NCBI GenBank assembly: GCA_963733095.1
Contig: CAVTBV010000008.1
Coordinates: 15,341-79,340, forward strand
Direction: 5' to 3'
Source: Candidatus Bathyarchaeota archaeon
GTDB taxonomy: Archaea; Thermoproteota; Bathyarchaeia; Bathyarchaeales; Bathycorpusculaceae
DNA length: 64,000 nucleotides
The notes beneath the pieces were generated by a model. That model was not told where the DNA came from and did no database searches. It saw nothing but the letters and a program-made list of their open reading frames with translations. This document shows positions 26,430 through 38,409 of the stretch, in pieces. How positions within the stretch are numbered: position 1 is the first letter of the stretch; each line of letters opens with the position of its first letter. The position numbers were made by a program, and so were the translations under genes.

Positions 26430-28286
26430 GTGGCGTTAACCAGCAACTCTGATTTTTACGTCTCGATTCAAGACGCTGGCATCAATCGGCTTGTTCGGCA
26501 TGTTATGTGGAAAAGGCCTTCTCTTTTTAACTATGGAACTTCGTTTGTTGCTTCTAACCCTCATCTTCTATGCCAAAATATCGATGTCGCGCCAGAGGTT
26601 CTGCAGGCTGGAAACCCCCTTGTTACAGTTATAGATTCTTTACCGATCATTGGAACATCGTTAGCACTAAACTACGCAATACAGCTCACAAAGGGAGAAC
26701 TTGATTTTCATCCAGGAAATATCTTTACTCTTCCAAACGAATTAAATCCGCCATTAGGAAAACAGCGTCTTGGCGTTCATTTCCAAGTTTGCGCAGGCTT
26801 AGGCTGCCCCCCAGCCATTGGTCTTCCCACACCAGGCAAACCTTCTGTAAGAGTTCCCTCAATCGCCAATTTAACCAGGTTATCTGCAAACGACATATCC
26901 GTTTCTAAGACGGGCGGAATTTTTAATCCAAATGGCGGAGAAGTCGTTTTGCCATCACAACAATTAGACTGTTTTTGCCTTGACTTATACGCTACGGGGG
27001 GCTCAAAAACAACGGGGTCTGTGGGAAATCAACAGATTCAGCCATTTGTGGACGGCATAGACATCGTAGATATCGAGCCAGATCCAATAGAAAACATGAT
27101 AGAATGCTACGCACTACTTGCTTTGAACCAAGGAATCCTCCCAAGTATCGGTCAGCTTATTTCAAAATTCGCCTTTAACAATCCACTCCCGCCAGAATTG
27201 GGGACCCTTATTTTTTCTGCATCAACAACTGTTCCTAATAATCCCGCGATTGAAGACAATCAACTCAAAGCCTTCATCAATTTAGACAACATAGTCCTTA
27301 ACCTCAACATTCCCCCAACGATTTGCCAATCAAGCGGAGGGGGAAGCGGGGGTGGCGGCGGAGGCGGAGGAACCGTAACAAGGACCACTCGAAGCAGAAC
27401 ACGAACAGATACATTCGATTTAACCGCAGCTATTTCTGCCAAAGCATTTGGAAAAATCTTTGGGGCAATAGTTAAAGGCTTTCACTTTTCCTGCGCTGAC
27501 CAAGGTAGTTATGGACCGTTTTCTGCGAATTACGATGTAGAGGCACATCTAGAAGGCGGATCAATTCAATTGCGAAATAACGAAACCATCGAAGTCTCCG
27601 ACTTAGAAGTGAAATGGGATACTTTGAGCCTAAATCTTTGCGTCGACATTCCTGAACAATGTGTGGGCGGCGGCTGCCTTATTCCAAACCCATTTGATGG
27701 TTGCGTTCTTAGTGTGCCCAAAATATGCGTTTTCAGTGGCAACCCCGATTTCTGTTTACCGATAAATCTAAGCGGTCTGATTACTTCAGAGGTAACTTTT
27801 ACTGCTGGTTTTAGGGTTTTCTACGGCATTGGCTCAGGTGTAACAAACAGATGGCAAATTGTAATAGTGCCCGAAATGCCTATTGATCTGCAAATAATCG
27901 ACGTGGCTGATACGGTAGGTGACCTTTTCAAAAATCTTTTTGATTCAGCAATTGATGGACTATTAGGCGGTCTCCCCGATTGGGCAAAAGACTTGTTGAA
28001 GGGCATTTTTGGTTCAATCGATGACATGATCCGATTCGTTCTTGACATTCCTGACGATATAGCTGGCTGGCTTATGGATATCCTTACAAGCCTAGGGGTA
28101 TTCGACGTTTTGCTATCGGGAGTCTATGATTTCTTAGCAAACAACTTACCCGCACTCGAAATAGATGACCCCTTCAAAGCTTTAGACCAAGCCGGTCCGC
28201 TAATTCCGGTAATGGTTCCTATAGAGTTTATTGGAATTAAAATCAACTCAAACGAAATGATTATTGAAGGAGATGTGGGGAACTAA
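26430..28286 (+). CDS. Hypothetical two-domain beta-rich protein with poly-Gly linker
   Basis: 618-aa ORF, AGGAG SD, GTG start; SSGGGSGGGGGGGG linker at 27330-27371; Cys-rich patch in second half. Confidence 0.75.
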   Translation: MALTSNSDFYVSIQDAGINRLVRHVMWKRPSLFNYGTSFVASNPHLLCQNIDVAPEVLQAGNPLVTVIDSLPIIGTSLALNYAIQLTKGELDFHPGNIFTLPNELNPPLGKQRLGVHFQVCAGLGCPPAIGLPTPGKPSVRVPSIANLTRLSANDISVSKTGGIFNPNGGEVVLPSQQLDCFCLDLYATGGSKTTGSVGNQQIQPFVDGIDIVDIEPDPIENMIECYALLALNQGILPSIGQLISKFAFNNPLPPELGTLIFSASTTVPNNPAIEDNQLKAFINLDNIVLNLNIPPTICQSSGGGSGGGGGGGGTVTRTTRSRTRTDTFDLTAAISAKAFGKIFGAIVKGFHFSCADQGSYGPFSANYDVEAHLEGGSIQLRNNETIEVSDLEVKWDTLSLNLCVDIPEQCVGGGCLIPNPFDGCVLSVPKICVFSGNPDFCLPINLSGLITSEVTFTAGFRVFYGIGSGVTNRWQIVIVPEMPIDLQIIDVADTVGDLFKNLFDSAIDGLLGGLPDWAKDLLKGIFGSIDDMIRFVLDIPDDIAGWLMDILTSLGVFDVLLSGVYDFLANNLPALEIDDPFKALDQAGPLIPVMVPIEFIGIKINSNEMIIEGDVGN

Positions 28287-28288
28287 AA

Positions 28289-29059
28289 ATGAAAGCCATA
28301 CTTAATCCATTTGTTTTTTCTCAAGTAAACTTAGACAGCGCATCACTCACCATGCTGACTTCGGTCGTCCATAAGATCGCAGAGTCAGGAACATACGATG
28401 GCACAATTCAACGAGGATCAGACACGGTAGGCCGATTTAGATTGGCTGCTTCAGATTTACCACCGGAAAAATGCGCAGACGAATCCAAAAATCAAGTCAA
28501 TATCGACTTGAAAAGTTTGGATCTACCGGTAGCGGACCATATTGAAAGTCAATTGAAGAATTGTTTCCAAGTCAAAACTGGAGGATACGTCGTATTTCAT
28601 CTGTCAAATGGCGCTGGCGGCTACTCCGTCGAACTTCGAAAAACTGGAACCGAATGCGGGGGAAAAATAGTTTTTGACAGCCGAAAACTTAATGAAAACG
28701 ACTATTTTGTTGCCACACCACTACGCCCAGGAATCTACAACATCTTAAACGTGGAAACAAAGGCAAAAGCAGAGTTAATTGTTGCTTATCCAGAAATCGG
28801 AAAAATACCTAAACAACCACAAGCAACAAAAGTTGAATGCAGCCAAAACGCAATAACGCCTGGAAAAACTAAAATCAACCCAACTGAGTCCTTATTGTTT
28901 AGTTTTATGGCATCTTCAAGAATAAAAATAGAGCTAGTCAAACCAGAAGATCGCCCTCGAGTGAACACACAAAAAAAGGAAACACAGCAATCTAAAAAAC
29001 CATCGAAGAGTTTGGCTCCAAACCAGAAACCAATACGCCACCTGCGCATAAACGTCTGA
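28289..29059 (+). CDS. Hypothetical beta-rich protein
   Basis: 256-aa ORF starting 2 bp after upstream stop. Confidence 0.75.
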   Translation: MKAILNPFVFSQVNLDSASLTMLTSVVHKIAESGTYDGTIQRGSDTVGRFRLAASDLPPEKCADESKNQVNIDLKSLDLPVADHIESQLKNCFQVKTGGYVVFHLSNGAGGYSVELRKTGTECGGKIVFDSRKLNENDYFVATPLRPGIYNILNVETKAKAELIVAYPEIGKIPKQPQATKVECSQNAITPGKTKINPTESLLFSFMASSRIKIELVKPEDRPRVNTQKKETQQSKKPSKSLAPNQKPIRHLRINV

Positions 29060-29062
29060 AGC

Positions 29063-30154
29063 TTAACCACTTGGGGCTTTTCGGCCCACTTTACCTATTT
29101 CATACACAATCAAATGTGGATACTTCAGTAAAAATTTGTATAATTGAGCGTTCTCTTTTTTCAATTCAACACTTGGATCTGGCTCGTAGATATGTAATAT
29201 TGCCATTTGGTTTTCGCTGAGCGCATTGGTCATTTCGCTAAGGGTAAACCAATGGTTAGGATTATCCTTGTGCTTATGTTCTATCTTGTAACGTGGTAAA
29301 CATCCGCGAAAATGGCCTCCATTTGAGAGGGCTATTCCTTTAGCAAGTTGACCAAAAAAGGGATGCGCCTCGATTATAAAGAATCTGCCTTGGTCTTTCA
29401 AAATTCTGTTAATTTTACTCAATGCTTGGCTGAATTCTTCATGGTTATGTTCCTTTCTGGAAAAGTCAAAACTCACAATGGTGTCTATCGCAACAACATA
29501 GTCAAACTCTTTAGGACGCAAATTTTCTGCAAATTCAAGAAAATCACGATGAAAAAACTCTACGTTACTAAGGCCTAACTTCTCCTTGAGTTCCTGTGCC
29601 TTAGAAATTAAAAATTTACTTTTATCTATTCCAATTACCTGTGCTCCACGTTGGGCCAAAATGGCAGAATAAAATCCTGGTCCACATCCAAAGTCAAGGA
29701 TTTTTTTTCCAGCTACATATTCTTTAGAAAAGAAATGGGTTACAAAATTGTGTACGTAATGCTTGTAGTAGACTCTGTTTTTAGGTCGAATGTCAGAAAC
29801 ATCATCATAAAATTTCTTTTCAAACCAGTTTTCCATAATTGGTGGTTGCTCATTTTCTTCCAAAGCTTTACGAACTGCCTCGTTCATAGCTTTGTTGACT
29901 GCCTCAACGGCAATCTGATCAATGTTCTCGTCTATGCTTTTTTCGCCGATTACAGAAATTAACCATTCTTTGTACTCAGGTATCAATCTTTTTGCAGCTT
30001 CATACATTGTTGTTTGCAATTTCGCTAGAATTTCAAGATCCAAATTCGCAGCATTCAGATTCTCCTTCGAGAATAGAGCAATAATTTTCCTCTTAGAAAC
30101 AGTCTCTAGTGGCTTTTTGGAGGAAGTTTTGGGTGCTGATTTATTGTTTGACAA
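29063..30154 (-). CDS. Class I SAM-dependent methyltransferase with N-terminal precursor-like domain
   Basis: ILDFGCGPG motif I, GIDKS, FDYVV, ILKDQG; residues 39-101 align with the 168-aa protein. Confidence 0.9.
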   Translation of the reverse strand: MSNNKSAPKTSSKKPLETVSKRKIIALFSKENLNAANLDLEILAKLQTTMYEAAKRLIPEYKEWLISVIGEKSIDENIDQIAVEAVNKAMNEAVRKALEENEQPPIMENWFEKKFYDDVSDIRPKNRVYYKHYVHNFVTHFFSKEYVAGKKILDFGCGPGFYSAILAQRGAQVIGIDKSKFLISKAQELKEKLGLSNVEFFHRDFLEFAENLRPKEFDYVVAIDTIVSFDFSRKEHNHEEFSQALSKINRILKDQGRFFIIEAHPFFGQLAKGIALSNGGHFRGCLPRYKIEHKHKDNPNHWFTLSEMTNALSENQMAILHIYEPDPSVELKKENAQLYKFLLKYPHLIVYEIGKVGRKAPSG

Positions 30155-30267
30155 AACAATCGCTACTCCATTTTCATGAATTGGGAACTATTTATGTTTG
30201 TGAGGCATTGCAGATTTTAATTGAAGGAAATCCATATTGCGGATCGTACTGAAAAGTTCAGTAATGT

Positions 30268-31848
30268 TTAGTAAAACGGAACAATTATTTTTAAGGGATT
30301 ATTTCTGGCTGTTTTTAACTTTCTTAGTCGTGCCCAGACTGAAGTTAAGATTTCATAACGATTACTCTCTGGTCTGGGTGAATACACATAACTGTGGTTT
30401 AAGCCCATATTTCGCCTGATTGCTTCAATTCCATATTTTTGTGGATTTTGAGATATTTCTGAATCATGATAGACCCCAAAACGTGAAACATGTACCTGAT
30501 CAATAAACTCATAATTCCGCTCTAAGAAATCAACAGACTGTTTGAAATCGCTTACAGTTTCTCCTGGAAAATCTACGATCATAAATGTTAGAACCCGAAT
30601 TCCGCTTCTTGCAGTATTCCGAATCACCTTCTTAGCAGTGTCCAAATCATACCCTTTTTTCATTTTCTGCAATATTCTTTGAGACCCTGATTCTATGCCA
30701 TACCACAAACCTATGCAACCTGCATTGCACATCTTTTCCAGCAACTTATTAGTCATTTCAGGGCGAACCCGAGCATTACCCATCCATTTTATTCCCATAT
30801 CTTCTTCGATTAATAAATCACAGAATGTTTCTAGCGATTTTATATTACAATTTATAAAACTGTCGTTGAAGCGAATGACAGACGTTCCATACTTTCCTTG
30901 CATACTTTTAATCTCGGATACAATGTCTTCGGGGGTTCGCATACGGCAAGTGTTACCCCATAACCGTTTTTCAACACAAAAAACACAATTCCCAACACAC
31001 CCTCTAGAGCCAACAACTGGCATTATAGGCATACCAAACTTATTCTGAGGATACTCACTCAATGGCAAATCATCATAAGAGGGAAAAGGCAAAGAATCAA
31101 GAGATTCCACTAATGGACGAGCCTCATTGGTAATGATTATATCTTCCGTGTTCCTGTAAGAGATTCCTTTGATTTCTTCAATTGACTCTAAACTACCGTC
31201 ATACGAATTCGCAAGCTCAGAAATTGTGACCTCGCCTTCACCATGAACTACTGCATTAATTTCGGGATAAAAAGAGAGAACTTCTTTCCAAGAGACGAAT
31301 GCAGGTCCACCCAACACCGTCAAGATTCTGGGCAGACGTTTCTTCAATTTACGTGCAAGAAGAATACTCCACAACAATCCAATATGACTAATCACATGAA
31401 ATCCCACAATACTTTGTTCTTTGAAAGCATGGGCAACTTCCAAAAACCAACTGTTACAAATTTTCCAAACATCAGAGACAACTTCTAACCTTAATTCTTC
31501 ATTAATCACGTGGCCGTACCCTAAATTTGAATAAGGATAACTTAATTGATCAGAGGCCTCTTTTAACATAATTTCTTCAAAAGTATCCTTGCTCTCGAAC
31601 ATAACAGAGCAAAGATGCGATTCAGGAATTTTTTCCTCTTTCACACTTACTCCACGATTGCTATGGCGTAAAATTTCTCTGGGCTTAATGCTTAATCCTT
31701 GGTGAAAAAGAGCTAAATTAAAAGATTTAATGTTCAAATCGAAGGTACTTACATTTTGATTATTTGCCTTTAGGATACCTGTCAGGTAAGGGATTGCAGG
31801 ATAAGGCACTAAGGAAGATACAGGGGGGATGCAAAAAAACACGGGCAT
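30268..31848 (-). CDS. B12-binding radical SAM enzyme (class B methyltransferase-like)
   Basis: Cobalamin-binding region (LGGP, GEGE), GSRGCVGNCVFC, GIESGSQRILQKMKKG, DFPGET. Confidence 0.9.
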   Translation of the reverse strand: MPVFFCIPPVSSLVPYPAIPYLTGILKANNQNVSTFDLNIKSFNLALFHQGLSIKPREILRHSNRGVSVKEEKIPESHLCSVMFESKDTFEEIMLKEASDQLSYPYSNLGYGHVINEELRLEVVSDVWKICNSWFLEVAHAFKEQSIVGFHVISHIGLLWSILLARKLKKRLPRILTVLGGPAFVSWKEVLSFYPEINAVVHGEGEVTISELANSYDGSLESIEEIKGISYRNTEDIIITNEARPLVESLDSLPFPSYDDLPLSEYPQNKFGMPIMPVVGSRGCVGNCVFCVEKRLWGNTCRMRTPEDIVSEIKSMQGKYGTSVIRFNDSFINCNIKSLETFCDLLIEEDMGIKWMGNARVRPEMTNKLLEKMCNAGCIGLWYGIESGSQRILQKMKKGYDLDTAKKVIRNTARSGIRVLTFMIVDFPGETVSDFKQSVDFLERNYEFIDQVHVSRFGVYHDSEISQNPQKYGIEAIRRNMGLNHSYVYSPRPESNRYEILTSVWARLRKLKTARNNPLKIIVPFY

Positions 31849-32011
31849 TTTGTAAATCCTTTAAATCATGTTTTGACGAAGCTTTCTGGTAACCCACTTT
31901 GGATAAGCGTGATGCTACATAATGAAACTAAGAATCATGATGCATTAATGTTATGACAACAACTCTTATGGTCAATTACGCCCTTTTATTTGAGGGTTGA
32001 ATTAAAGAACC

Positions 32012-32518
32012 TCAAACTCTACCTTGTTTCAAATTTTCTTTCAAAGCTTCACGAATTGCAACATTCATAGCTTTGTTAACTGCCTGAGCAACCATGTCAT
32101 CAATGTTCCTATTTGGTTGAGGACAATCGTTTCCACAAGAACTACATAAGGGCGTTGGACAATCGTTTCCACAAGAACTACATAAGGGCGTTGGACAATC
32201 GTTTCCACAAGAACTACATAAGGGCGTTGGACAATCTTCAGCCACAACTCTTTCACCAAAAGAAGAATTCACCCACTGTTTGTATTCGGGCACCGTTTTT
32301 TCCACGACTTCATGAATTGTTGATTGTAGTTTCGCATATATTTCTGGATCTATTTTTTCAATAGGGGGCATTTTTGCTAAAAGCGCATTTAGTCGTCTAC
32401 TTTGCGCCCCAGTGAGTTTACTTTTTGAAACAACGGTGGTTAATTTCTTAGAAGCTATTTTAGCGGGTTTTTTATAATTAGCTTTTGTCCTTACTTTATT
32501 CTTTGGCAAAAAAATCAC
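32012..32518 (-). CDS. Putative RiPP-like precursor with internal Cys-rich tandem cores
   Basis: Residues 96-131 are (CPTPLCSSCGND)x3 followed by CPQP; lies between two radical SAM genes. Confidence 0.75.
   Translation of the reverse strand: MIFLPKNKVRTKANYKKPAKIASKKLTTVVSKSKLTGAQSRRLNALLAKMPPIEKIDPEIYAKLQSTIHEVVEKTVPEYKQWVNSSFGERVVAEDCPTPLCSSCGNDCPTPLCSSCGNDCPTPLCSSCGNDCPQPNRNIDDMVAQAVNKAMNVAIREALKENLKQGRV
32121..32236. repeat. 36-bp perfect coding tandem repeat, 3 copies plus 8 bp
   Basis: GGACAATCGTTTCCACAAGAACTACATAAGGGCGTT at 32121, 32157, 32193, partial at 32229. Confidence 0.97.
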
Positions 32519-32658
32519 TAACTATTTATGATTTACCAATTATTTATGTTTATTGCACGGAACTGATTTAAGACTTATTTTTAAATAAGCCTGAGTCGAT
32601 TCTACACTTTTATCAAAGATCAGCGTTGTTTGTCCATAGAGCTTTCGGTAATGGAAAT

Positions 32659-34116
32659 TTAGGTTGGTTTCTTTGCTCTCTTTTTCACCCGTCTTCGCAA
32701 CTTTTTCGATTTTAGGTTTGTAGATTGCATCAGGAAATTATAAGTTAGCAAAAGTTTGAGGATTTCATTTTGAAAAGTGCAAAAATAGTTCTCTTTTATT
32801 CCAATTTTACCGGTCTTAATGTAGACATCATAGGCACAAGCTCCGCCGCAGATCCCAAGGGCAGGACAAAGCATACAATCTTTATTCTTCAGGGTGCCAA
32901 GTTCTAGCCACTCGTAAAACAATGGTTCTTCTTGAACATTCAAATCGTCTTTTACTGGAATTTGATGTTTTCCGGAAGGATAAAACGCTTGGCAAGGCCC
33001 AACAGTTCCAGCAGGTGAAAAGAATATTTGCTGACCAAATGCAGGACAATCATACACATGAAATGCTTCCTTGAAAAAATAGCTTGCTCTTCGCACATCT
33101 ATGCGATCTTCAAACATCTGAAGTTCTTTAGCTTTTAAGTATGCTCTAAAAAGATGCTGAGCTAGTTGTTTTGGGTCGGGAACTTCATATTCGGTCGGTT
33201 CCTTTAGTCTGGTTAACAAATTGAAACTTAGGCTTCTAACTCCCAATTTATGGACAAATTCAACTATTTCCTCCGCGTATTCGTAGTTCTGTTTCGTAAT
33301 TGTACATGATATCCCAACATTTACTCCAAGTTCTTTCAAGAGAGCCAACGCTTTAAGTGCTGAATAAAATGTTTCTTTTCCGCCAGTAAAAACACGGTTT
33401 TTGTCTATGCTGGCCCATCCGTCTAGTGATAAACCAACACCAACATTGTGTTGCTTGAGTTTTCTAGCCAAGTCATCTGTTAATAAACTCCCGTTAGTAA
33501 CGCAAGAAAACACGAATTTGTTTTTGGATGCTTGCTCCAGTTTTTCAATAATGTAGAAAACGATTTCGCTGTTGCTAAGTGGTTCTCCTCCATAAAATGT
33601 GACTCTGTATTCTTGAACTTGTCTTGCTGCGTTAATTAGAACTTTTATGACTTTGTCCGCCAAATCCTTTGACATTGAAATGCTCGGTCCTTCAAGAGAG
33701 TTTTCAATGAAGCAGTAACCGCATCTGAAGTTGCAGTAGTCAGTCACTAAAATGTACGACAGATTTGGCACGGGTTTTTTTCTGAGTACGCTATCTGCAA
33801 TGTTATTAAACACTTTTTCTTGATCAAAGCCGCGAGGCACTATGAATTTCAACTTAATTAGCTTCTTGACGTAGCCACTTTGGTGCCCCTTGCTTAGATC
33901 TGTTAAAACCTTAACATACTCATCATTGGACAAGTATACTTTTTTCAGAGTTAAAGAATTAAAAAGACACTTCGTCGTTTCATCTATGTTAAACAGATGG
34001 ATGAACGGCGAAAGAATTAACTGGGATGGTTCTTCACAGCTCGATTGTTTACCGGGATTACTTTTGTTCAAAAGAGCATTAACCTTCGCGACTTGTTTTT
34101 TGCTAAATTTATGCAA
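32659..34116 (-). CDS. Radical SAM/SPASM domain peptide maturase
   Basis: CNFRCGYC, YGGEPL, TNGSLL, SLDG; SPASM cysteines CPAF...GPC...CMLCPALGICGGAC...FC; N-terminal region sized like an RRE. Confidence 0.92.
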   Translation of the reverse strand: MHKFSKKQVAKVNALLNKSNPGKQSSCEEPSQLILSPFIHLFNIDETTKCLFNSLTLKKVYLSNDEYVKVLTDLSKGHQSGYVKKLIKLKFIVPRGFDQEKVFNNIADSVLRKKPVPNLSYILVTDYCNFRCGYCFIENSLEGPSISMSKDLADKVIKVLINAARQVQEYRVTFYGGEPLSNSEIVFYIIEKLEQASKNKFVFSCVTNGSLLTDDLARKLKQHNVGVGLSLDGWASIDKNRVFTGGKETFYSALKALALLKELGVNVGISCTITKQNYEYAEEIVEFVHKLGVRSLSFNLLTRLKEPTEYEVPDPKQLAQHLFRAYLKAKELQMFEDRIDVRRASYFFKEAFHVYDCPAFGQQIFFSPAGTVGPCQAFYPSGKHQIPVKDDLNVQEEPLFYEWLELGTLKNKDCMLCPALGICGGACAYDVYIKTGKIGIKENYFCTFQNEILKLLLTYNFLMQSTNLKSKKLRRRVKKRAKKPT

Positions 34117-34631: not shown

Positions 34632-35058
34632 CTATTTGGGGGGCAAACATACCGTAAAAGTTGTGCTCTTCCCTTCTTGGCTTTCAAAAGTTACTGTTCC
34701 CCCTAAACCTTCAGTCATGCGTTTAATCACTGCTAATCCGAAACCTTGACCTTTAGCTTTGGTTGTGAACATTGGCGTAAACATCTTACCTTAAATGGCT
34801 TTGATATGCCTCCTCCGGTATCCTTGACATCTATCACGACATCACTTGCTTTTTTGTAAGCCTTTATGACAATTTCACCGCCATTAGGCATCGCTTGAAC
34901 AGCGTTATTAACCAAATTGACCATAATGCGTTTTATGAAAGCAGAGTCAGTATAACCTTTTCAGCCGCAACTTCAACTTTAACGTTTACTTTAACATTTT
35001 CGGGCAAACCGTTCTTTGCCAATAAGTCTTCAACTAAGAGTTTCAGATCAACTTCTTC
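34632..35058 (-). pseudogene. Frameshifted histidine kinase HATPase_c fragment
   Basis: KNGLPENVKV..., NLVNNAVQAMPNGG, DTGGGI, GQGFGLAVIKRMTEGLGG spread over different frames. Confidence 0.85.
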
Positions 35059-35314: not shown

Positions 35315-35599
35315 CTATCGCGGAGTATTGACTGCTGTTTTTCTTTTTGATTTTTCTATTATCTCACAGATGCGGCAGGCGGCGTCATCGAGTGTCTTTT
35401 TGAGCTGCTTCATGTCCTCTTCGACTGCGTCGCGGTTTTCCAAAAGTGGGTAGACACTGAGATGGATCAAGTCGAAAGTTGCCTTAATGTCAATTTTTCC
35501 TGTTCTTTTTTGATCCATGACTGATTTCATTATTTTTTCTCTTTTGGCAATTTCCTCAATCTTTAACCTTGGTTTATCGCTACTTAGACTTCTGCTCAT
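35315..35599 (-). CDS. Small helical hypothetical protein
   Basis: ATG at 35599 overlaps upstream stop (TAATG) after GAGGTGG SD. Confidence 0.7.
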   Translation of the reverse strand: MSRSLSSDKPRLKIEEIAKREKIMKSVMDQKRTGKIDIKATFDLIHLSVYPLLENRDAVEEDMKQLKKTLDDAACRICEIIEKSKRKTAVNTPR

Positions 35600-36795
35600 T
35601 ACATTACCACCTCTATCTCTGGAATTTTCATCCCACACAGGTTTAATCCCTTAATTTTAATACCTTTTAATACCAAGCTTAGGTCAAGCTTGTCGGTGAT
35701 TGCTGAGTCAGTTGTAACTGTGCCGGATAAGTTTGAAAACTCCAAGCCGCCCTTGACCCTCATCACCATTTTGCTGACGTTGAGAGTTAATACGCCGGTT
35801 ATATGGGCTCTATCTGCGTCACCAATGAGGGTAACACCTGGTCCATACATCTGTTTTGAGGTGGATATGGTTAGAGCAGTCTTAGATTCTGCTTCAAAGG
35901 GCTGGGTAGTGACAGATGGAATTGTTACGTTTAAGGCTTTTATGTCTTTCATGGAAGCTTGAGGACTCGAAATTCCGTTTGAGTCCATTTCATCAATTGT
36001 TGTTTGGTCTGTTGCGATGTCGTTGGGTCCCGTTGGATTAGGGATTGGAAGGCACAGTCCAATGTTAATTCCAAGGGGAGTATCGATGGGGATGCTTGTA
36101 CATTTCATCTGTATGTTGTCGGCTGAAACTTGGTCTATTGTGGTTTCCTTTATCGGGTCAGCAGTCATAGAGAATGGACCGATAGAGGTTAGAGTTGAAA
36201 ACATGGAAAATTGACCAGCGCCGAACACGACGTCTCCAAGCGTATGTTTCTCCACATAAGAGTTAAAGTTGACTCCGCCCGATACGCCATAACAAAAGTC
36301 AGACCAACAGAGCGGCCATGGCAAGTCAATGTTTCCCGAAAACGTTGTGCTTATGGATAATGTGATTTCTAGCTCTACGTTTTTGGCTTTGCATGATTCG
36401 TACTTGAATGTTCCGCTAAAATCTCTCAGCCGAAGGTTTGGAATGGATACTTCACCGATTTCTATCTCCGCAATCGAGAGCGGTCCCCCGATGCTGGAGG
36501 CGATTTTGGATTGGGGTATAACTGCTCGAGCTATCACCTTTTGTTCTCTTGGGCGACATCGCATTTGGGGCGGAGGGCAATCACAACCCTTTATCGGGAT
36601 TTTGGGTAAATCGAAACATACTTTTTGTGTTTCTACCTCTATTTTAGGCAAGTTTAAGCAGACTTTTTGCGTTTCCACCTTCGGCAGTGGAATGCATATT
36701 TTCCCTTCTTGCGATGCAGTAGTTGCGTTAGTTGTTTCTACGGAAGTTACTTCTTTTACATCTAAAACTTTTTTTGTTCTCGAGCTCTTGCTCAA
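35599..36795 (-). CDS. Hypothetical beta-rich protein with Cys/Pro-rich N-terminal repeats
   Basis: 398 aa; K[IV]C[ILF]xLPK[VI] three times, then GCDCPPP; Ile/Ser/Thr-rich beta pattern. Confidence 0.75.
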   Translation of the reverse strand: MSKSSRTKKVLDVKEVTSVETTNATTASQEGKICIPLPKVETQKVCLNLPKIEVETQKVCFDLPKIPIKGCDCPPPQMRCRPREQKVIARAVIPQSKIASSIGGPLSIAEIEIGEVSIPNLRLRDFSGTFKYESCKAKNVELEITLSISTTFSGNIDLPWPLCWSDFCYGVSGGVNFNSYVEKHTLGDVVFGAGQFSMFSTLTSIGPFSMTADPIKETTIDQVSADNIQMKCTSIPIDTPLGINIGLCLPIPNPTGPNDIATDQTTIDEMDSNGISSPQASMKDIKALNVTIPSVTTQPFEAESKTALTISTSKQMYGPGVTLIGDADRAHITGVLTLNVSKMVMRVKGGLEFSNLSGTVTTDSAITDKLDLSLVLKGIKIKGLNLCGMKIPEIEVVM

Positions 36796-37302: not shown

Positions 37303-38409
37303 CTAAACCCTCTTTCGCGGACGAACCGATTCAAACCAGCAGGGAAGAACACACTCATAGGTATTGCCTCCAACTTTCGCGCGCAAGTTGGCTTCACAGA
37401 ACATTTCATTGAACACAACCTCTGACGAATTGATAATACTATTGTTGACTATGCTACATACCGCCTTAGGGGTAAAAACAATTTCAAGTTTATCGACGTC
37501 TTTAAAGGCGGTAAACGTTCTGTTTTTTGGAATAGACGGGCGGTAACTCGGATACAGTAACTGCGTGATTCCAGGCATAACGCTTAGGTTGCCATCGTAG
37601 TCTCCTGAGGAAGCTATCTTCATTTTAGTGTTGTCGAAGAATTGTCTTTTTCCATCTTTTGTTTCAAGGAAGACTCCGCCGTATGATAAATCGTTGGAAG
37701 AGCCATAGCGGTAAATCAGAAAATCCACTCGTCCAGGCTCATCGGCAGCTAGAGGGTCACAAAAGATAACGCCAGTATCCCAACCCCAAGTCATCCCTAT
37801 GTCGAAGCATCCGCCTTCATGGTCCTGATAGCCCTGATTAGTCTTAATTGCGTAGTTCTTCTTGCATATTGTTAGGTTGCCTTCAACAAATAGTCTCGGC
37901 AGCTCAACCCAACTTTCCCATTGGTGATTCATTTCTTGGGCTGCCAAAAGCATCTTTGCGTTAGGATTCTGCTCTTTTAGGACTTCCATGAAGATATCTT
38001 TGTCTGTCACAGGTGGCGATACAACTTTAAAATTTAGGTCAAAAGAAGTCTGTTCCATCTGTCCCACAACATCAAAAGAATTGTTCGCCAACAAAGCTAC
38101 TGAGAAATTATCGCCGGTAAAGTTGGGGCTGTATGATGTAACCTCGAGTTGACCCATCTGTATTAACTTTAATTCGGAAAATATTTTTTGAGATGAATCC
38201 ACAATGTATGAAAGAACAGAGCCCCAGCCGCGTTTTGAATCATATGGATTTCCATGAACACCAAAGTTTAGCAGACCGAATATCCCTGTTTTTCGGTCGA
38301 AAAAAACGAAGTCATGCCATTCTTGATAGAGCCGAGCCTTCGCATCGAAAAGGGAGGGCAGAGTGAAAGCATCGACGCTAGCCGTGTCTTCTACACGGTA
38401 TAGAGTCAT
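37303..38409 (-). CDS. CrtC/AttH/tocopherol-cyclase-like beta-barrel protein
   Basis: YQEWHDF, GYQDHEGG and WGWDTG correspond to the EW.F, GY.DH..G and W.W motifs of this superfamily. Confidence 0.55.
   Translation of the reverse strand: MTLYRVEDTASVDAFTLPSLFDAKARLYQEWHDFVFFDRKTGIFGLLNFGVHGNPYDSKRGWGSVLSYIVDSSQKIFSELKLIQMGQLEVTSYSPNFTGDNFSVALLANNSFDVVGQMEQTSFDLNFKVVSPPVTDKDIFMEVLKEQNPNAKMLLAAQEMNHQWESWVELPRLFVEGNLTICKKNYAIKTNQGYQDHEGGCFDIGMTWGWDTGVIFCDPLAADEPGRVDFLIYRYGSSNDLSYGGVFLETKDGKRQFFDNTKMKIASSGDYDGNLSVMPGITQLLYPSYRPSIPKNRTFTAFKDVDKLEIVFTPKAVCSIVNNSIINSSEVVFNEMFCEANLRAKVGGNTYECVLPCWFESVRPRKRV

Follow-up and report, generated by a model that had tools for sequence, protein, structure and literature searches.

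What do two radical S-adenosylmethionine (SAM) enzymes and a methyltransferase act upon when the gene encoded among them specifies a small protein with a tandem run of cysteine motifs in its middle? The question is raised by a stretch of 64,000 nucleotides (nt) from a Candidatus Bathyarchaeota archaeon (contig CAVTBV010000008.1; "the window" hereafter means this whole stretch of DNA as analysed), whose host genome is 2.84 Mb in size and 95% complete. On its minus strand, positions 29063-34116 hold four co-oriented open reading frames (ORFs) separated by gaps of 140, 163 and 113 nt; the ORFs and their domain matches confirm the four genes named in a sequence-only reading of the same DNA, namely a radical SAM/SPASM enzyme, a Cys-rich protein, a B12-type radical SAM enzyme and a methyltransferase. 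By analogy with characterised systems, the two radical enzymes and the methyltransferase most likely modify a Cys-rich loop inside a small helical protein, in a few members of one genus of sediment archaea. The explanation we favour, and consider probable though well short of certain, is that of a dedicated maturation cassette of the type that produces ribosomally synthesised, post-translationally modified peptides (RiPPs), its substrate being the Cys-repeat loop inside a small helical scaffold protein of the cytoplasm. The product is probably a RiPP-like loop, bridged by thioethers, methylated and retained in the protein. The features of the cassette, with lengths in amino acids (aa), are:

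32659-34116, minus strand: radical SAM/SPASM enzyme, 485 aa, with an N-terminal domain resembling a RiPP recognition element (RRE); presumed maturase of the Cys loop
33787-34020, minus strand: RRE-like domain of the SPASM enzyme, residues ~33-110, placed by AlphaFold2 (AF2) elements and by fold match to CteB and SuiB
32012-32518, minus strand: 168-aa scaffold/precursor, comprising a Lys-rich disordered tail, a helical scaffold, an internal Cys-repeat loop and a C-terminal helix
32120-32233, minus strand: core loop of the precursor, (CPTPLCSSCGND)x3 + CP, residues 96-133, with 10 Cys
30268-31848, minus strand: B12-type radical SAM enzyme, 526 aa, presumed C-methyltransferase
29063-30154, minus strand: class I SAM methyltransferase, 363 aa, whose N-terminus repeats the precursor scaffold without its core
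29840-30154, minus strand: N-terminal ~105 residues of the methyltransferase, a paralogue of the precursor scaffold without the Cys loop, placed by BLASTP and hhalign

Do these genes belong together? Of 400 further genomes sampled from the class, 39 belong to the window's genus and 361 do not; the precursor profile matched 2 of the 39 and none of the 361, and the SPASM orthologue was likewise absent from those 361. Within a genus set of 120 genomes that included the window's own, a SPASM orthologue (E<=1e-60) occurred in 22, the precursor (profile E<=1e-25) occurred in the identical 22, and neither was found in the other 98, these genomes being kin and not independent observations. SPASM orthologues in the relatives are 59-80% identical, the lower values belonging to copies broken by stops, and two homologues carry the label Bathyarchaeia from their source. 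We then compared 12 loci, nine of them from six genomes of the genus and three (L026-L028, with SPASM enzymes 77-80% identical to that of the window) being those with a precursor among the 80 loci of a contig scan. The SPASM gene lies directly upstream of the precursor gene in 10 of the 12; the two orphan precursors (L021, L024) come from genomes that also hold a full cassette. A B12 enzyme accompanies the pair in 8 of the 10 cassette loci (it is missing from L018 and L027), and a methyltransferase with the N-terminal domain in 9 (missing, within that locus' sequence, from L027), while a second precursor stands between B12 enzyme and methyltransferase in L017, L022 and L028. Homologous loci in Bathyarchaeia relatives thus establish the conserved archaeal cassette that had been surmised, and the neighbourhood check proposed with it was answered by the joint occurrence in the same 22 genomes and by adjacency in 10 of 12 loci. 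The SPASM enzyme and the precursor form a constant, obligate adjacent pair, to which the B12 enzyme and the methyltransferase are usual, not universal, additions; as some lineages do without these two, the core function of the system would lie in cross-linking by the SPASM enzyme.

The genes around the cassette are not constant. Flanking genes vary among the loci: two neighbours found on one side of the cassette in the window stand on its other side in L025, and in L023 the cassette adjoins ClpB. When ORFs of at least 90 aa from the 12 loci and the window were clustered, only the four cassette families and an antisense shadow ORF recurred with the cassette. The other families that these loci share (PQQ/Ig-like paralogues, histidine kinase, TFIIB, ClpB, bPH protein and others) included no peptidase and no transporter, in agreement with the earlier remark that the cluster lacks protease and exporter.

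The Cys-repeat protein comprises 95 residues, three copies of CPTPLCSSCGND with a terminal CP (residues 96-133) and 35 further residues, or 37 counting the final CP. Its ten Cys stand at positions 96, 101, 104, 108, 113, 116, 120, 125, 128 and 132, and ORF and residue positions bear out the array of (CPTPLCSSCGND)x3 + CP, mid-protein with flanks of 95 and 37 aa, that had been read from the DNA. Is the array real? Tandem Repeats Finder reports a 36-nt unit in 3.2 copies with 100% matches (32121-32236), and the three units are identical at 36 of 36 bases; Logan contigs of four public DNA runs over 31850-32660 stop at the array or within it, and not one spans it. Complete identity in DNA and the breaking of short-word contigs are both features that an artefact of assembly, or of replication slippage in an ordinary small gene, would share, and the copy number of three in this genome rests on a single assembly, its units being freshly duplicated or homogenised. 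The homologues refute such an artefact, to which we give practically no credence, because they come from many assemblies, carry one to five units and keep the peptide over diverged DNA. Units of the same peptide within a relative's array differ from one another at 6-7 of 36 bases, all synonymously (29/36 shared in L023, 29/36 in L024 and 30/36 in L025); the repeat is therefore a selected coding feature, and its unit is under purifying selection.

A homologue search with the 168-aa protein retrieved 128 sequences at E<=0.01, and unit counts were taken from the 120 listed. These hold 270 in-register units with the consensus C-P-[TV]-[EPQ]-[LIV]-C-S-[SA]-C-[GS]-N-[DQ], and strict units number 0, 1, 2, 3, 4 or 5 in 1, 21, 55, 34, 8 and 1 proteins, respectively. 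C1, P2, C6 and C9 are kept in 270/270 units and N11 in 255/270, and position 12 is acidic or amidic in 264/270 (D in 207, Q in 48, E in 9). Irregular cores also occur on the constant scaffold: P0131 carries 10-residue units of CPTPICDCNT type, and P0136 an irregular core. The core had been regarded as foreign to described families, and this still holds, in that no Pfam or NCBIfam model matches it and no paper describing it was found.

What carries the repeats? The 168-aa protein belongs to no Pfam or NCBIfam family (the sole Pfam match at E<=0.01 is a sub-threshold one to RHH), and the ESM Atlas gave no usable match. A profile search of 1.84 billion cluster representatives returned 18 proteins at E<=0.001, of which 17 are of the same family (precursors and fragments) or its methyltransferase fusion (one), the last being an acidic low-complexity false match. 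In an alignment of 42 homologues both flanks of the repeat are highly conserved: a Lys-rich tail followed by MPPIEKLDP.MYAKLQSTI.D.V.KTLPEYQKWVNSS precedes the units, and ID..V..AVNEAM..AIRQAL follows them. The AF2 model (overall pLDDT, the predicted score of the local distance difference test, 57.7) places helices at residues 37-49, 58-83, 86-94 and 137-164, with pLDDT <50 for residues 1-32 and for the Cys loop 95-136; residues 1-50 contain 14 K+R and no D+E.

The methyltransferase of the cassette supplies a second view of this scaffold. Its catalytic part (Methyltransf_31, 1.5e-22, residues 149-264; ILDFGCGPG at residue 152) is preceded by a region that BLASTP aligns with the precursor at 3e-16 (precursor residues 13-162 against 2-101), residues 13-95 and 132-162 pairing with the methyltransferase and the whole repeat falling into one gap. 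Profiles of ten methyltransferase N-termini and of 120 precursors align by hhalign with 100% probability (E 5e-45), and among proteins longer than 294 aa the domain is carried only by methyltransferase fusions (10/10 matches). Vestigial remnants like DDCS-N-DCPTP persist at the same loop in several methyltransferase homologues, as in ..DDCSNNCPTPIK.. or ..DDCSSDCPTSIK..., and are gone from others and from the window's own enzyme. Evidently, as judged by these alignments, the methyltransferase bears a core-less copy of the scaffold derived from the precursor; since the flanks are homologous to this N-terminus without a core, the core is placed as an internal loop, and alignments and model together describe both flanks as one folded helical scaffold with the Cys units inserted in its loop. 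Long N- and C-terminal parts around the core, as first described, are present; their treatment as separate parts, leader and follower, does not stand, for they form a single scaffold that recurs core-less on the methyltransferase. In three relatives the methyltransferase is split between two frames (L023:10088-10435/10353-11273, L026:7672-8857 and L017:10189-11293), with the frame shift inside the vestigial Cys loop of the N-terminal domain in L023 and L026; these may represent decay, a real split into a core-less scaffold protein and an enzyme, or assembly error.

This arrangement bears on whether the product is released. Domain-sized leaders are known in RiPPs, as in the NHLP and Nif11 leaders, and a conventional released RiPP would here have a domain-sized leader, the C-terminal helix as follower, and modified Cys units that a protease encoded elsewhere would excise, for export one by one or as a multi-core peptide. 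The range of zero to five strict units and the variable cores on a constant scaffold (P0131, P0136) do recall multi-core precursors. But the C-terminal helix equals the N-terminal part in conservation and is retained by the copy on the methyltransferase, a pattern that speaks for a folded unit; the core is preceded by no conserved cleavage motif of the GG kind, the residues before it being A-[AE]-D; the Lys-rich N-terminus, where the structure prediction has low confidence, shows no signal peptide-like segment; and no peptidase or transporter family is common to the 12 relative loci and the window. We consider release unlikely. The product probably stays a protein, because protease and exporter are not linked to the cassette and the loop is clamped between conserved helices that are kept in the core-less copy.

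Which chemistry does the SPASM enzyme suggest? The 485-aa protein matches Pfam Radical_SAM (E 1.8e-22) with its CX3CX2C motif as CNFRCGYC at residue 128. Seven SPASM cysteines (C357, C375, C414, C417, C423, C427 and C446) follow in the spacing C357-x17-C375 (containing G-x4-C), C414-x2-C-x5-C-x3-C427 and then C446, and all ten radical SAM and SPASM cysteines are invariant in a 55-sequence alignment. The AF2 model made from that alignment (mean pLDDT 91.6) has, before the radical SAM barrel, an N-terminal domain of a beta-sheet and three helices at residues 33-110 (strands 33-35, 39-43, 48-53, 59-63 and 92-94; helices 64-76, 81-88 and 99-110; pLDDT 93-97). A Pfam scan gave no PqqD match at E<=0.01; in Foldseek, the whole model matches TigE (8vpo, 3.5e-20) and CteB (5wgg, 1.9e-19 over 464 columns), and also anSME, ChlB and SuiB, the full-length match to the RRE-bearing maturases CteB and SuiB spanning the RRE-like part. 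The search for an RRE at the N-terminus that had been recommended was in this way rewarded, and the enzyme as modelled has the RRE, radical SAM and SPASM build of RiPP maturases.

By sequence, its nearest solved relative is the thioether-forming CteB (8.7e-22). The best of 77 matching NCBIfam families is the FibroRumin maturase TIGR04136 (9.7e-55; 186.2 bits against a cut-off of 400), followed by the ranthipeptide maturase PapB NF047865 (2.4e-40; 138.8 against 340), CefB (1.5e-36), QhpD (1.6e-30; 106 against 453) and the CrpC family TIGR04463 (3.1e-28; 98.7 against 525); the SCIFF maturase model gives 98.7 bits against 425. All these matches are far below the curated cut-offs, and the enzyme is a member of none of the FibroRumin, PapB and CrpC families.

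The same comparisons allow the precursor to be the substrate of a different reaction, such as C-C cross-linking, cyclopropanation of V, I or L, epimerisation, or Cys oxidation of the anSME kind. The best Foldseek match, TigE, is a cyclopropyl synthase whose target is a repeating TIGSVS motif; anSME ranks high in NCBIfam, among PDB sequences and in Foldseek; and in all units position 5 is branched and aliphatic and position 3 is T or V. A Gly-Tyr-Trp motif is, according to the accessible part of one report, unique to all cyclopropyl synthases, where it gives the tyrosyl ligand of auxiliary cluster I (PMC10878394). This motif is missing from the window's SPASM enzyme: GYW is absent from the 485-aa protein, and the gyw segment of TigE aligns to ...mfedridv.... 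The unit also lacks the sulfatase-type C-x-P-x-R motif, and the three Cys per unit are invariant (270/270), which indicates sulfur chemistry; with CteB as nearest solved sequence relative, we judge a non-thioether reaction improbable, though a serious possibility, since the top fold match TigE makes cyclopropanes.

Alternatively the Cys-repeat protein might be no substrate but a metal or Fe-S accessory, an electron donor or a cluster or metal carrier serving both radical SAM enzymes through free Cys ligands. The classical ferredoxin motif is CxxCxxCxxxCP, and the spacing C-x4-C-x2-C-x3-C-P of the array likewise ends in C-P; a protein with a single unit contains exactly four Cys, radical SAM enzymes depend on a reductant, and the authors of the work on the archaeal Crp system suspect a metal role for their own product, in the accessible part of their report (PMC13692751). 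The classical spacing itself is absent, however, and Pfam gives no Fer4 or metallothionein match at E<=0.01. Cys numbers of 4, 7, 10, 13 and 16 (3n+1) misfit fixed four-Cys clusters, and P2, S7, N11 and D/Q12 are as conserved as the Cys, which would be unexpected for a mere string of ligands. The SPASM enzyme, moreover, bears an RRE-like peptide-recognition domain, and its only conserved small partner is the Cys-repeat protein. We think a purely accessory role distinctly unlikely; binding of metal after modification is compatible with the favoured explanation.

Two further observations concern the SPASM family. Most orthologues (P0147-P0194) have an N-terminal extension of ~30 residues, MSKKQSK.VN..NK.QPS.Q...E..AQL (window 34020-34116, minus strand), which is absent from outgroup enzymes and resembles precursor residues 31-64 (Lys-rich tail and first helix) and the methyltransferase N-domain. 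That the extension is precursor-like is unproven, hhalign giving P 0.0018 and a probability of 15% against the precursor and 0.018 and 2.5% against the methyltransferase profile. The nearest SPASM relatives outside the family (P0200, P0203, P0204, P0209-P0211) are 34-48% identical, 45-48% in the nearest, and often carry a C-terminal GNAT acetyltransferase fusion; a contig scan with the outgroup query P0210 found only family members (L026-L028) above 33% identity.

Do the remaining enzymes methylate the loop? The 526-aa protein matches Radical_SAM (6.3e-18) with CVGNCVFC at residue 284 as its CX3CX2C motif. Its best-scoring NCBIfam families are B12-dependent radical SAM C-methyltransferases, ApyD NF050148 (2.3e-49), the RiPP C-methyltransferase TIGR03975 (5.9e-40) and the methyltransferase that C-methylates a glutamine of MCR (5.3e-32), from each of which it differs in falling below the cut-off (168.4 against 750, 137.3 against 281.85 and 111 against 360 bits); the family alignments begin at residue 24 or later. 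Among PDB sequences it matches 9ccb (2.4e-20), TokK (1.3e-08) and CysS (7.7e-07). ApyD C-beta-methylates a Tyr of a RiPP to beta-methyltyrosine, and its cluster too has a separate SAM methyltransferase, as given in the accessible part of that report (PMC10635010).

For the class I methyltransferase, complex prediction was run between its N-domain (residues 1-112) and precursor residues 30-168, with controls and benchmark pairs. The pairing score was 0.42 (runs 0.13, 0.45 and 0.42), the best control reaching 0.01; the runs have at least 1% of contacts in common, and pLDDT in the partner is at least 50. In the benchmark, 58 of 80 solved complexes and 2 of 110 mismatched pairs attained the pairing mark, and scores at or below 0.60 belonged to only 7 of the 80 and to both mismatches. 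The prediction lends weak support to a pairing of the N-domain with the precursor scaffold. A bolder proposal, which we put forward tentatively and would not yet bet on, is that the N-domain is a decayed copy of the substrate serving as a "leader mimic" that docks the enzyme on the scaffold or on the RRE, and that the product is an intracellular protein with a thioether-stapled, methylated poly-Cys loop of one to five units, acting as a metal- or redox-active module.

The mechanism under the favoured explanation would run as follows. The RRE of the SPASM enzyme would recognise the highly conserved N-terminal segment of the scaffold (IEKLDP..YAKLQSTI....KT.PEY..W.NS), and the enzyme would join Cys of each 12-residue unit to nearby acceptors by intramolecular thioethers, most likely of ranthionine type; the best candidate acceptor site is C9-x-x-[D/Q]12, which fits a C-X-X-Q/D motif. 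The B12-type enzyme, by analogy with ApyD, would C-methylate one or more unactivated carbons of the loop. The class I methyltransferase would reach the substrate, or the complex of enzymes, through the N-domain it owes to the precursor, which might pair with the substrate scaffold or occupy the same docking site, and the enzyme would then methylate a heteroatom. The product would stay a modified protein, possibly a metal- or redox-active module. The sequence-only reading had posited a thioether-bridged, methylated multi-core product; this finds partial support in the maturase architecture and the strict co-occurrence, and thioethers, C-methyl groups and retention on the protein are proposed by analogy.

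Several points weigh against this explanation. The Pfam B12-binding match of the 526-aa enzyme (3.7e-4) scores 20.8 bits against 32.1 and is thus below threshold, and reaction types are not transferable from the matched families, because the enzymes stay far short of the curated cut-off in each of them. SPASM enzymes of the same fold perform other chemistry, the best structural match being a cyclopropyl synthase, and the loop, in its resemblance to metal- or Fe-S-binding sequences ending in C-P, may hold its Cys as plain ligands. Methylation is not essential to the system, because the B12 enzyme is missing from L018, and both it and the methyltransferase from L027 within that locus' sequence. 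The complex prediction is weak, and its calibration shows that a weak pass errs more often than not, save where the guess was already likely. A protease or exporter may be encoded apart from the cassette. Finally, several cassette copies in relatives carry frameshifts or stops, which may reflect decay or assembly error, two of them lying in the vestigial loop that the methyltransferase carries in its N-domain.

How does the cassette compare with known systems? Its closest characterised analogue is CrpA/CrpC of Methanococcus voltae, in which the SPASM enzyme CrpC puts ranthionine links on the repeat-containing, Cys-rich CrpA (PMC13692751, 2026); the following comparison is with the accessible part of that report. 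Both systems are archaeal and place an RRE, radical SAM and SPASM enzyme beside a Cys-rich protein of more than 100 aa with repeated Cys motifs. Both have motifs of C-X-X-D/Q type: the mapped CrpA sites include CAVD and CPLV, which resemble C-G-N-D and C-P-T-P-L of the window, and the Crp authors hold the C-X-X-Q/D motif as suggestive of radical-SAM thioether formation (PMC13692751). A protease is linked in neither, as far as the accessible part of the report describes, and the product is regarded as a modified protein. A second protein of the cluster also shares the N-terminal region of the substrate, CrpB there (47 residues in common with CrpA; PMC13692751) and the methyltransferase here. 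The differences are equally plain, since the window's enzyme is not a member of TIGR04463 and the substrates are unrelated in sequence, the unit has 12 residues in the window against 17 in Crp, and the repeats form an internal loop between conserved helices here and the C-terminal region there. With Crp as an archaeal precedent for protein-borne ranthionine cross-links (PMC13692751), the cassette stands nearer to known systems than had been supposed. The window's cassette differs further in adding a B12-type radical SAM enzyme and a methyltransferase and in being confined, among the genomes searched, to one genus of Bathyarchaeia.

Other maturases offer further parallels. CteB (thermocellin/SCIFF; PDB 5WGG) and PapB (freyrasin) share with the window's enzyme three domains, a 7-Cys SPASM part and a Cys-rich substrate encoded next door; CteB is only ~20% identical to it. 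The substrates of CteB and PapB are short released peptides with a C-terminal core, whereas that of the window's family is a protein of 130-200 aa with an internal core. The SPASM enzyme QhpD, whose model matches the window's enzyme as noted above, makes Cys-to-Asp/Glu thioethers in QhpC, which stays a protein subunit of quinohaemoprotein amine dehydrogenase (QHNDH); no dehydrogenase subunits occur in the window's cassette. QHNDH is cited as a protein with RiPP-like modification, in the accessible part of the Crp report (PMC13692751). CrpA and QhpC may, by analogy, be taken as precedents for a protein-retained product.

For the fusion, the nearest parallel is another. Borosins and split borosins have substrate domain and methyltransferase on one polypeptide in some lineages and apart in others, and the window's cassette likewise fuses a substrate-type domain to a methyltransferase. 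It differs in that the methyltransferase is a class I Rossmann enzyme and the fusion N-terminal, and the fused scaffold copy cannot be a substrate because its core is lost.

Observations on the surroundings of the cassette follow. Its G+C content is 0.37-0.38 (30-34 kb), lower than the 0.43 of the immediate flanks, and other low-GC bins occur in the window. A search of public sequencing runs listed no RNA run for it. Directly upstream of the cassette, at 34632-35058 (minus strand), lie three short frames that differ in phase and measure 41, 75 and 52 aa from stop to stop; taken together they resemble a histidine kinase in its ATP-binding C-terminal part (..NLVNNAVQAMP.GG.I.., ..DTGGGI.., ..GQGFGLA..) and are probably a frameshifted gene remnant. 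A histidine kinase beside the cassette in L017 was considered as a conserved neighbour and rejected, having no counterpart beside the cassette in the window. The surrounding ORFs at 26430-28286 (plus strand, 618 aa), 28289-29059 (plus, 256 aa), 35599-36795 (minus, 398 aa) and 37303-38409 (minus, 368 aa) have no Pfam or NCBIfam match. The run SSGGGSGGGGGGGGT lies inside the 618-aa ORF, and the 618/256-aa pair adjoins the cassette in L025 too, on its other side.

PQQ-like beta-propeller/Ig-like proteins of 800-1000 aa (weak matches, including Big_3_5) stand beside both orphan precursors and near two cassettes (L021:5127-7592, L022:14842-17682, L023:13057-15699; in the window's own genome, for example, C13:484982-487411). 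They were rejected as partners, as the own genome has ~50 copies with 97 matching segments, and with ~50 copies in a 2.8-Mb genome such adjacency is expected by chance. In L027, which lacks the B12 enzyme and the methyltransferase, the gene of another, distantly related radical SAM/SPASM enzyme (1344-2732, 462 aa, 23% identity) precedes the family's SPASM gene, and just upstream of this second enzyme a 116-aa ORF with several Cys (L027:917-1267) could be a second substrate. The L027 precursor has four units and a C-terminal extension, and its 10-kb contig is assigned to a bacterial metagenome-assembled genome, which may reflect mis-binning or transfer.

What, then, is new? SPASM enzymes with Cys-rich substrates, including protein substrates in archaea, are already known. 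New are a core of variable copy number set inside a helical scaffold, a methyltransferase domain that is a relic of the precursor, the association with a B12-type radical SAM enzyme and the confinement to part of a single genus. In the literature we found no paper with the core motif, although the Crp paper's list of Cys-rich proteins associated with radical SAM enzymes might include the family, and we found none on radical-SAM RiPPs of Bathyarchaeia; to judge by title and abstract, the papers listed on Bathyarchaeota, RiPPs and biosynthetic gene clusters are surveys of metagenomes.

Proteins, as distinct from short peptides, have barely begun to be recognised as targets of enzymatic cross-linking, and an archaeal example was first published in 2026. 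If the favoured explanation is true, the cassette would be a second, unrelated archaeal case, in an uncultured lineage abundant in sediments, and its layout would be unusual, with modified repeats inside a helical hairpin instead of at a terminus and with two extra tailoring enzymes. The scaffold copy on the methyltransferase offers a testable idea of how tailoring enzymes without an RRE find their substrate; if it does act as a leader mimic, it would be a natural counterpart of engineered leader-fused RiPP enzymes, a mode of recruitment of which we found no description. The small modular substrate, with its 12-residue units in one to five natural copies, would be convenient for studying the specificity of SPASM and B12-type radical SAM enzymes and, if the loop binds metals, the family would have a bearing on metal handling in anoxic archaea.

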